Shown piece by piece: positions 1-6,689 of a DNA stretch of 18,155 nt. The translations under genes were made by a program, and so were the position numbers. The DNA is from a virus (lineage: Duplodnaviria; Heunggongvirae; Uroviricota; Caudoviricetes). The notes beneath the pieces were generated by a model. That model did no database searches and was not told the DNA's origin. It worked only from the letters and a program-made list of their open reading frames with translations. The stretch lies in IMG/VR virus record IMGVR_UViG_2585427754_000003; one strand, given 5' to 3'. Within the stretch, counting starts at the first letter, position 1; each line of letters starts with the position of its first letter.

Positions 1-513
1 AGAGGGCTGGACAGGGCCCTCATCCGTTCACTCAGTCAGGGAAACTGGTTAACCCTGAAACAAAATATTTTACTGACCGGGGCCACCGGCAGCGGTAAAA
101 CGTTCCTGGCATGTGCACTTGGTCATAATGCCTGCCGACAGGGATACAAGGTCTACTATTATCGCCTTAAAGCGCTGATGGAACAGTGCTATCAGGGGCA
201 TGCTGATGGAAGATACAGCAAACTTTTGACCAGGCTGAATAATAGCGATCTGCTGCTTCTGGATGACTGGGGGCTGGAACCTCTCTCATCAGAACAGCGT
301 AGCGACCTGCTGGAAATAGTGGATCTGATGTACCAACGAGGCTCAATCATCGTAGTGAGCCAGTTGCCGGTGGAAAACTGGTACAAAATGATCGGAGACT
401 CCACACATGCGGATGCCATCCTAGATCGACTGGTTCATGGCAGTATCAAGATCGAACTTCAAGGAGAATCAATGCGGAAAATACAATCTCCGTTGACCGA
501 AGGAGATCAGTGA
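1..513 (+). CDS. istB: IS21-family transposition helper ATPase IstB, 5'-truncated by window edge
   Basis: Frame 1 is open from nt 1 to the stop at 511-513. Translation contains Walker A GATGSGKT, Walker B LLLLDDWG and the C-terminal ADAILDRLVH...ELQGESMRK motif typical of IstB/DnaC-like AAA+ proteins. The track ORF 178..513 is only the part after an internal Met. Confidence 0.85.
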   Translation, partial: RGLDRALIRSLSQGNWLTLKQNILLTGATGSGKTFLACALGHNACRQGYKVYYYRLKALMEQCYQGHADGRYSKLLTRLNNSDLLLLDDWGLEPLSSEQRSDLLEIVDLMYQRGSIIVVSQLPVENWYKMIGDSTHADAILDRLVHGSIKIELQGESMRKIQSPLTEGDQ

Positions 514-598
514 AGGTAATTTAAAAACGGTTCTGTGAAAGTGACACGAACCGATCTCCATCGATGTTACTCACCGATCTCCTTCACGGTAATACGCA
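1..598 (+). mobile_element. Right-hand portion of an IS21-family insertion sequence (istB 3' part plus right terminus), continuing upstream of the window
   Basis: istB ends at 513. The following ~85 bp carry repeated gatctcc-type motifs (499-508 inverted, 550-559 and 573-582 direct) and end in ...acgca at ~598, directly followed by lambda nu1 3' sequence from ~599. The exact end is uncertain by a few bp. Confidence 0.65.
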
Positions 599-624
599 GG
601 ATGAACTGATACCGGGGTTGCTGA

Positions 625-4331
<3,707 letters not shown>

Positions 4332-4351
<20 letters not shown>

Positions 4352-6689
4352 TCTCCCGCATATTGCCAGTATGGCCTTTAATGAGCCGCTGATGCTTGAA
4401 CCCGCCTATGCGCGGGTTTTCTTTTGTGCGCTTGCAGGCCAGCTGGGGATCAGCCGCCTGACGGATGCGGTGTCCGGTGACAGCCTGACTGCCGGAGAGG
4501 CACCCGCGACGCTGGCGTTATCCGGTAATGATGACGGGCCACGACAGGCCCGCAGTTATCAGGTCATGAACGGCATCGCCGTGCTGCCGGTGTCCGGCAC
4601 GCTGGTCAGCCGGACGCGGGCGCTGCAGCCGTACTCGGGGATGACCGGTTACAACGGCATTATCGCCCGTCTGCAACAGGCTGCCAGCGACCCGATGGTG
4701 GACGGCATTCTGCTCGATATGGACACGCCAGGCGGAATGGTGGCGGGGGCATTTGACTGCGCTGACATCATCGCCCGTGTGCGAGACATAAAACCGGTAT
4801 GGGCGCTGGCCAACGACATGAACTGCAGTGCAGGTCAGCTGCTTGCCAGTGCCGCCTCCCGGCGTCTGGTCACGCAGACCGCCCGGACAGGCTCCATCGG
4901 CGTCATGATGGCTCACAGTAATTACGGTGCTGCCCTGGAGAAACAGGGGGTGGAAATCACGCTGATTTACAGCGGCAGCCATAAGGTGGATGGCAATCCC
5001 TACAGCCATCTTCCGGATGACGTCCGGGAGACACTGCAGTCCCGGATGGACGCAACCCGCCAGATGTTTGCGCAGAAGGTGTCGGCATATACCGGCCTGT
5101 CTGTGCAGGCTGTGCTGGATACCGAGGCTGCAGTGTACAGCGGTCAGGAGGCCATTGATGTCGGACTGGCTGATGAACTTGTTAACAGCACCGATGCGAT
5201 CACCGTCATGCGTGATGCACTGGATGCGCGTAAATCCCGTCTCTCAGGAGGGCGAATGACCAAAGAGACTCAATCAACAACTGTTTCAGCCACTGCTTCG
5301 CAGACTGACGTTACTGACGTGGTGCCAGCGACGGAGGGCGAAAACGCCAGCGCGGCGCAGCCGGACGTGAACGCGCAGATCACCGCTGCGGTTGCGGCAG
5401 AAAACAGCCGCATTATGGGGATCCTCAACTGTGAGGAGGCTCACGGACGCGAAGAACAGGCCCGCGTGCTGGCAGAACCCCCCGGTATGACCGTGGAAAC
5501 GGCCCGCCGCATTCTGGCAGCTGCACCACAGAGTGCACAGGCGCGCAGTGACACTGCGCTGGATCGTCTGATGCAGGGGGCACCGGCACCGCTGGCTGCA
5601 GGTAACCCGGCATCCTTCATCACTAAAGGCCGCCTGTGCGGCTTTTTTTTACGGGATTTTTTTATGTCGATGTACACAACCGCCCAGCTGCTGGCGGCAA
5701 ATGAGAAGAAATTTAAGTTTGATCCGCTGTTTCTGCGTCTCTTTTTCCGTGAGAGCTATCCCTTCACCACGGAGAAAGTCTATCTCTCACAAATTCCGGG
5801 ACTGGTAAACATGGCGCTGTACGTTTCGCCGATTGTTTCCGGTGAGGTTATCCGCTCCCGTGGCGGCTCCACCTCTGAATTTACACCGGGATATGTCAAG
5901 CCGAAGCATGAGGTGAATCCGCAGATGACCCTGCGTCGCCTGCCGGATGAAGATCCGCAGAATCTGGCGGACCCGGCTTACCGCCGCCGTCGCATCATCA
6001 TGCAGAACATGCGAGACGAAGAGCTGGCCATTGCTCAGGTCGAAGAGATGCAGGCAGTTTCTGCTGTGCTTAAGGGCAAATACACCATGACCGGTGAAGC
6101 CTTCGATCCGGTTGAGGTGGATATGGGCCGCAGTGCGGCGAACAACATCACACAGTCCGGTGGTACGGAGTGGAGCAAGCGTGACAAGTCCACGTATGAC
6201 CCGACCGACGATATCGAAGCCTATGCGCTGAACGCCAGCGGAGTGGTGAATATCATCGTGTTTGATCCGAAAGGCTGGGCGCTGTTCCGTTCCTTCAAAG
6301 CCGTCAAGGAGAAGCTGGATACCCGTCGCGGCTCTAATTCCGAGCTGGAGACAGCGGTAAAAGACCTGGGCGAAGCGGTGTCCTATAAGGGGATGTATGG
6401 CGATACGGCGATCGTCGTGTATTCCGGACAGTACGTGGAAAACGACGTCAAAAAGAACTTCCTTCCGGACAACACGATGGTGCTGGGGAACACTCAGGCA
6501 CGCGGTCTGCGCACCTATGGCTGCATTCAGGATGCGGACGCACAGCGCGAAGGTATTAACGCCTCTGCCCGCTACCCGAAAAACTGGGTGACTACCGGCG
6601 ATCCGGCGCGTGAGTTCACCATGATTCAGTCAGCACCGCTGATGCTGCTGGCTGACCCTGATGCGTTCGTGTCCGTACAACTGGCGTAA
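4332..6689 (+). CDS. C: Prohead protease/scaffold C-Nu3 fused in frame to major capsid protein E (D gene deleted); ~785 codons from the C start
   Basis: C starts at GTG 4332 (MTAELRNLPHIASMAF...) behind SD ggagg at 4321-4325. The frame runs without a stop through the normal C/Nu3 C-terminal region (...AAGNPAS), then a 16-codon linker FITKGRLCGFFLRDFF read from former intergenic sequence, then the E ATG at 5664 and on to the E stop at 6689. The in-frame Nu3 start ATG is at 5046. The track ORF 4197..6689 is the same frame extended upstream into B. Confidence 0.75.
5625..5650 (+). promoter_or_regulatory. Terminator-like GC hairpin plus T-run immediately upstream of the E start, now inside the fusion reading frame
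   Basis: aaaggccgc ctgt gcggc followed by tttttttt: stem gccgc/gcggc (5629-5633 and 5638-5642), loop ctgt, then a T8 run (5643-5650). Confidence 0.45.
5664..6689 (+). CDS. E: Major capsid protein E (341 aa); also forms the C-terminal part of the C-Nu3-E fusion frame
   Basis: MSMYTTAQLLAANEKKFKFDPLFLRLFFRESYPF...DAFVSVQLA, 341 codons from ATG 5664, matching lambda gpE in length and almost all of its sequence. Confidence 0.9.
   Translation: MSMYTTAQLLAANEKKFKFDPLFLRLFFRESYPFTTEKVYLSQIPGLVNMALYVSPIVSGEVIRSRGGSTSEFTPGYVKPKHEVNPQMTLRRLPDEDPQNLADPAYRRRRIIMQNMRDEELAIAQVEEMQAVSAVLKGKYTMTGEAFDPVEVDMGRSAANNITQSGGTEWSKRDKSTYDPTDDIEAYALNASGVVNIIVFDPKGWALFRSFKAVKEKLDTRRGSNSELETAVKDLGEAVSYKGMYGDTAIVVYSGQYVENDVKKNFLPDNTMVLGNTQARGLRTYGCIQDADAQREGINASARYPKNWVTTGDPAREFTMIQSAPLMLLADPDAFVSVQLA

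Follow-up and report, generated by a model that had tools for sequence, protein, structure and literature searches.

A probable ISEc12 insertion in the 3′ end of nu1 in a lambda-like prophage, viewed from a contig that ends inside the element

The closest described counterparts of the locus analysed here are the nu1–A operon of phage lambda (J02459; nu1, 191–736; A, 711–2636), simple insertions of ISEc12 such as the tssM::ISEc12 allele of Escherichia coli ST131 clade C/H30 (PMC10711316), and defective lambdoid prophages with Nu1 homologues (nohA in Qin and nohD in DLP12). The window, which is the whole stretch of 18,155 bp that we analysed, is the entire draft contig JORP01000097.1 of assembly GCA_000713265.1, from E. 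coli 6-537-08_S3_C1. From nt 599 onwards it is about 99% identical to lambda from position 685 and retains both the 26-nt overlap between nu1 and A and the GTG at which A starts; it differs in that this lambda relative, carried by a wild E. coli isolate, has lost gene D and has an nu1 that appears interrupted after codon 167. With tssM::ISEc12 it shares the element itself (at least 99% identity), the TG...CA ends, a gene split in two, probably a short target duplication, and draft contigs truncated at the IS, but here the target is prophage nu1 and the apparent duplication has 7 bp, not 5. As in the nohA and nohD prophages, packaging genes are decaying in the chromosome, and nohA or nohD is the name that RefSeq gives to uninterrupted alleles of the window nu1. 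Those remnants keep nu1 and have lost structural genes, whereas the window prophage has a nearly complete A-to-J module and an interrupted nu1. The case is one of ordinary prophage decay: a known IS, a known gene and known behaviour, viewed through a fragmented assembly. Biologically little is at stake: the IS probably inactivates its target in a prophage that has also lost a head gene.

The ISEc12 end and its junction with nu1

The left part of the window contains the following features, all on the + strand.

1–598, +: right-hand 598 nt of ISEc12 (IS21 family), with 99–99.7% identity to copies from complete E. coli genomes
1–513, +: 3′ part of istB, codons 79–248 and the TGA stop, encoding an AAA+ helper ATPase (translation, Pfam, NCBIfam and identity to the ISEc12 IstB)
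551–582, +: two direct copies of CCGATCTCC, at 551–559 and 574–582, 23 bp apart (read from the sequence)
591–598, +: outermost 8 nt of the right inverted repeat, AATACGCA, of which the last two are the terminal CA (comparison with reference copies)
599–605, +: GGATGAA (lambda 685–691), right-hand copy of a putative 7-bp target-site duplication (right flank from lambda 685; hybrid protein)
600–650, +: 3′ stub of nu1, codons 166–181 and the stop, 100% identical to lambda
625–2550, +: intact gene A for the large terminase subunit, 641 aa from a GTG start (translation, Pfam domains and lambda comparison)

Frame 1 is free of stops from nt 1 to 513 and encodes 170 aa with the motifs GATGSGKT, LLLLDDWG and ADAILDRLVH...GESMRK. 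An earlier note, made from the letters of the window, had called this an IstB-type frame of an IS21-family element. Translation, Pfam and NCBIfam agree: the fragment matches IstB_IS21 (PF01695) at E = 4.4e-52 and scores 209.7 bits against NF038214, the IS21 helper-ATPase equivalog, for which the curated cutoff is 200. The element can be named as ISEc12, because the fragment is identical at 169/170 positions to residues 79–248 of the 248-aa ISEc12 IstB, and near-identical nucleotide copies carry the RefSeq label ‘IS21-like element ISEc12 family’. Complete ISEc12 is about 2.58 kb long (2579 bp in strain G8). In all reference copies istA lies upstream of istB, and the window begins inside istB.

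Alignment of the window with three other ISEc12 copies showed identity through ...GGTAATACGCA and unrelated sequence from the next base on, which places the IS terminus exactly at nt 598 (...CGCA), where the earlier note had put it approximately; a terminal CA is typical of the family. The same terminal bases also close four reference ISEc12 copies and two more contigs of the source assembly. The reverse complement of AATACGCA, TGCGTATT, forms the first 8 nt of the left end in reference copies, and the element is bounded by 5′-TG...CA-3′ terminal inverted repeats (right end from the window, left end from reference copies). IS21 terminal repeats contain R1 and R2 repeats spaced 23 bp (PMC10122671); the CCGATCTCC pair occupies the place where the right terminal inverted repeat of an IS21-type element is expected to carry its R2 and R1 repeats, which bind transposase, and we regard it as a putative pair of this kind.

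Homology to lambda starts at nt 599, equivalent to lambda 685 (one position from the earlier expectation of about 686); megablast places the start at 595, or lambda 681, from three chance CGC matches. The only part of a lambda-type Nu1 (PF07471) in the window is codons 166–181, and neither the N-terminal winged-helix cosB-binding domain nor a full 181-aa open reading frame was found there. The 16-codon stub overlapping the start of A was thus correctly read at the outset, as was the integrity of A itself, whose two gpA Pfam domains are complete: GpA_ATPase (PF05876, E = 2.2e-50) and GpA_nuclease (PF20454, E = 1.3e-74) are matched near full length in one 641-aa open reading frame. The identical 641-aa gpA is also encoded on many other contigs. 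The IstB fragment, the IS terminus, the nu1 stub and the intact A are not attributable to chance. A 28-codon hybrid open reading frame (564–650), made up of MLLTDLLHGNTQ and the 16 stub residues, begins at an ATG inside the IS end, continues in the nu1 frame and overlaps the start of A; no obvious Shine–Dalgarno sequence was seen 5′ of it.

Searches for the exact junction between the IS and nu1 in 5,426 complete E. coli genomes, phage records, IMG/VR, JGI metagenomes and GTDB representative genomes gave no match. Its absence from all the collections searched indicates a lineage-specific event, though one of a familiar kind, and nu1::ISEc12 with GGATGAA flanks would be a usable typing marker for the lineage. 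Three G-series strains that seemingly cover 100% of the window have ISEc12 in lom, downstream of J, which is a different event.

A contig end inside the element and a probable left-junction protein

The 170-aa IstB fragment lies at the ends of three contigs of GCA_000713265.1, namely the window contig (097), JORP01000080.1 (080) and JORP01000038.1 (038). All three carry the same 598 nt of the IS with zero mismatches and begin at the same IS coordinate. Position 1 of the window is therefore an assembler break inside a repeat of at least three copies and no biological boundary. Because the contig stops in a multicopy IS, the missing istA, left IS end, 5′ part of nu1 and cos say nothing about the genome, and the earlier note did say that insertion and deletion could not be told apart from the window. 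The lesson for method is that, where a window starts inside a multicopy IS, its status as a whole draft contig should be checked before a deletion is inferred. The 3′ end of the window (18155) lies inside gene J, about 290 nt short of the J stop of strain G8, and both window ends are assembly breaks.

The other two copies have flanks of their own. Contig 080 (1–1800) belongs to an IncFII plasmid, on which the ISEc12 end lies about 260 bp from repA, and its flank is unlike that of the ISEc12 copy on plasmid p13P460A-1. On contig 038 (1–3412), ISEc12 interrupts the type VI secretion gene tssM/icmF after about codon 193; intact relatives carry WP_032172790.1 (1,129 aa). This tssM site differs from that of the ST131 clade C tssM::ISEc12 (PMC10711316) and looks like an independent hit in the same gene.

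A simple insertion predicts a left-junction protein that runs along nu1 through the duplicated bases and then reads through into the left end of ISEc12. Seven complete genomes are identical to the window over the 1,400 nt that follow the junction on its right, and their Nu1 alleles are WP_000453566.1, the commoner, or WP_072643792.1. The hybrid built on WP_000453566.1 with a 7-bp duplication matches a deposited protein of 171 aa exactly, Nu1(1–167) followed by CVFS and a stop, with accessions KEM69759.1, KEM75957.1, KEN11981.1 and MBN6582364.1, from four contigs of at most 12 kb each. Its coding sequence corresponds to nu1 through lambda 691 and then TGC GTA TTT TCA TGA of the ISEc12 left end. 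The hybrid falls within a Nu1 cluster of 2,868 members represented by a full-length protein, and it is recorded in at least three submissions and in at least two assemblies besides the source. KEM69759 falls between KEM68412, from the window contig, and KEM75163, from contig 038; given the serial numbering of GenBank accessions, KEM69759.1 presumably belongs to the source assembly. Accession numbers for proteins of the three contigs run from KEM68412 to KEM75163, a range of at least 6,750 that exceeds a normal E. coli proteome, and the hybrid has two accessions in the KEM series; the assembly may thus be too large, as a mixed culture or duplicated contigs, for instance, would make it.

A left junction after lambda 691 and a right junction before lambda 685 have 7 bp in common, GGATGAA, as a single transposition would leave. 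The case for a GGATGAA duplication, which we consider the likely product of the insertion, combines the DNA of the right junction, the exact protein match for the left junction and the accession range. The match was at 7 bp only: exact protein look-ups of hybrids with 4-, 5- and 6-bp duplications on eight Nu1 alleles found none on record, and a later round added 3-, 7- and 8-bp duplications. The same look-up failed to find the left hybrid of the tssM copy (4–6-bp duplications, alternative start), which served as a positive control, so negatives of this method are uninformative. A left-junction 32-mer that assumed a 5-bp duplication, in hindsight the wrong length, was absent from metagenomes and representative genomes.

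All four reference ISEc12 copies are simple insertions, three with a 5-bp duplication and one with 5–6 bp, and tssM::ISEc12 of EC958 has a 5-bp duplication (PMC10711316). The 7 bp at nu1 exceeds the 5–6 bp of the other copies examined, which is a point against it. The duplications comprise ATATG, GATGA and CCGCT (5 bp), ATAAAC (5–6 bp) and, putatively, GGATGAA (7 bp, nu1), and the length of the ISEc12 target duplication appears to be variable.

Proposed event and competing explanations

We propose that an ISEc12 copy entered the nu1 gene of a lambda-like prophage by transposition, landing in the 3′ end of the gene and facing the same way as the late operon, and would thereby have duplicated 7 bp of target, GGATGAA (lambda 685–691). 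A simple insertion of this kind, with cos and nu1 codons 1–167 kept upstream, is in our judgement the probable explanation by a wide measure. The genome order would then most likely be cos, nu1 codons 1–167, ISEc12 (about 2.58 kb), nu1 codons 166–181, A, W, B and so on to J, and the left junction would be expected to read ...GCGCTGGATGAA followed directly by TGCGTATTTTCATGA. Short-read assembly broke off inside the multicopy IS, and the right junction alone lies in the window. Most likely, cos and 167 of the 181 nu1 codons (92%) thus remain about 2.6 kb upstream. That the two junctions are joined across one and the same IS copy we infer, since contigs break inside identical copies, and this linkage is the main residual uncertainty.

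Alternatively, after a simple insertion, homologous recombination among the identical ISEc12 copies in nu1, in tssM and on the IncFII plasmid might have inverted or otherwise rearranged the genome, so that nu1 codons 1–167 with the left IS end and the right IS end with the nu1 stub and A are no longer adjacent. Three copies or more agree at every one of the 598 nt seen, and every contig breaks inside the IS, which leaves linkage across any copy unobserved. We nevertheless consider such a rearrangement unlikely, because no observation requires it, an unrearranged insertion would yield just such a pair of matching junctions, overlapping by 7 bp, and two or more other assemblies contain this hybrid Nu1 too. 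Less likely again is the reading in the title of the earlier note, in which the IS replaces cos and almost all of nu1, that is, an IS-mediated adjacent deletion took cos and nu1 codons 1–165 and the left end of the IS abuts unrelated DNA. The window has no sequence to the left of the IS, and the right junction is missing from the 5,426 complete genomes, with no complete relative showing the full structure. Yet the upstream sequence is missing since the contig ends in a repeat; a protein that is possible only where nu1 codon 167 abuts the ISEc12 left end exists, with an accession in the range of the assembly; and all reference ISEc12 copies checked are simple insertions. With this reciprocal protein on record and the 7-bp duplication that it implies, the apparent replacement is best regarded as an artefact of a contig end in a repeat.

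An assembly chimera, in which the join of IS and nu1 is not present in the cell, might be suspected of a draft short-read assembly with duplicated repeat ends on its contigs. The join, however, coincides to the base with the CA that terminates the IS inverted repeat, and the reciprocal left junction, 7 bp away, is recorded in four contigs from at least three submissions; a mis-join would not mimic transposition chemistry, and we give this explanation almost no weight.

Terminase function, late transcription and the loss of D

If nu1 was interrupted by simple insertion, its product would be Nu1(1–167) plus CVFS, which would keep the cosB-binding and self-assembly parts and lose the last 14 residues. 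Lambda TerS binds TerL through its C-terminal region (PMC9611059, citing Frackman 1985 and Yang 1999). Loss of 14 residues in this gpA-binding region would probably abolish holoterminase assembly, and cos cleavage and packaging by the prophage's own enzyme are probably lost with it. The earlier suggestion that the prophage cannot package its own DNA is in this respect plausible, given that the gpA-binding tail and D are lost, but not for the reason advanced, absence of cos and nu1. The truncated protein might instead be retained for a function of its own, in which it occupies the cos sites of lambdoid phages that enter the cell or already reside there and hinders the packaging of these phages. 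That three or more independent submissions contain it would fit retention, although we rate such a role as very improbable.

Gene A retains its own start and upstream bases. Neither a sigma-70-like promoter nor a + strand terminator was found between istB and A, and no outward promoter was found in the IS end. If A to J are expressed, this would be through transcripts that read through the IS. Transcription of A would then depend on the Q-antiterminated late transcript or on istAB.

A second lesion lies further along the operon. At the junction of window positions 5614 and 5615 the prophage lacks 385 bp that every close relative has, and microhomology there amounts to 1 nt only. The deletion takes the last 12 codons of C (hence of the nested Nu3), all of D (head decoration) and 6 nt beyond. 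It thereby fuses the C protease/scaffold frame, via the D–E spacer, in frame to the major capsid gene E.

4332–6689: 785-aa C–E fusion open reading frame, KEM68416.1, annotated ‘clp protease family protein’, with the E start codon kept

The fusion protein is on record for the window contig only, and the nu1 hybrid occurs in other submissions as well, which makes the IS insertion probably the older of the two lesions. The remaining genes from W to I have the same lengths as in relatives.
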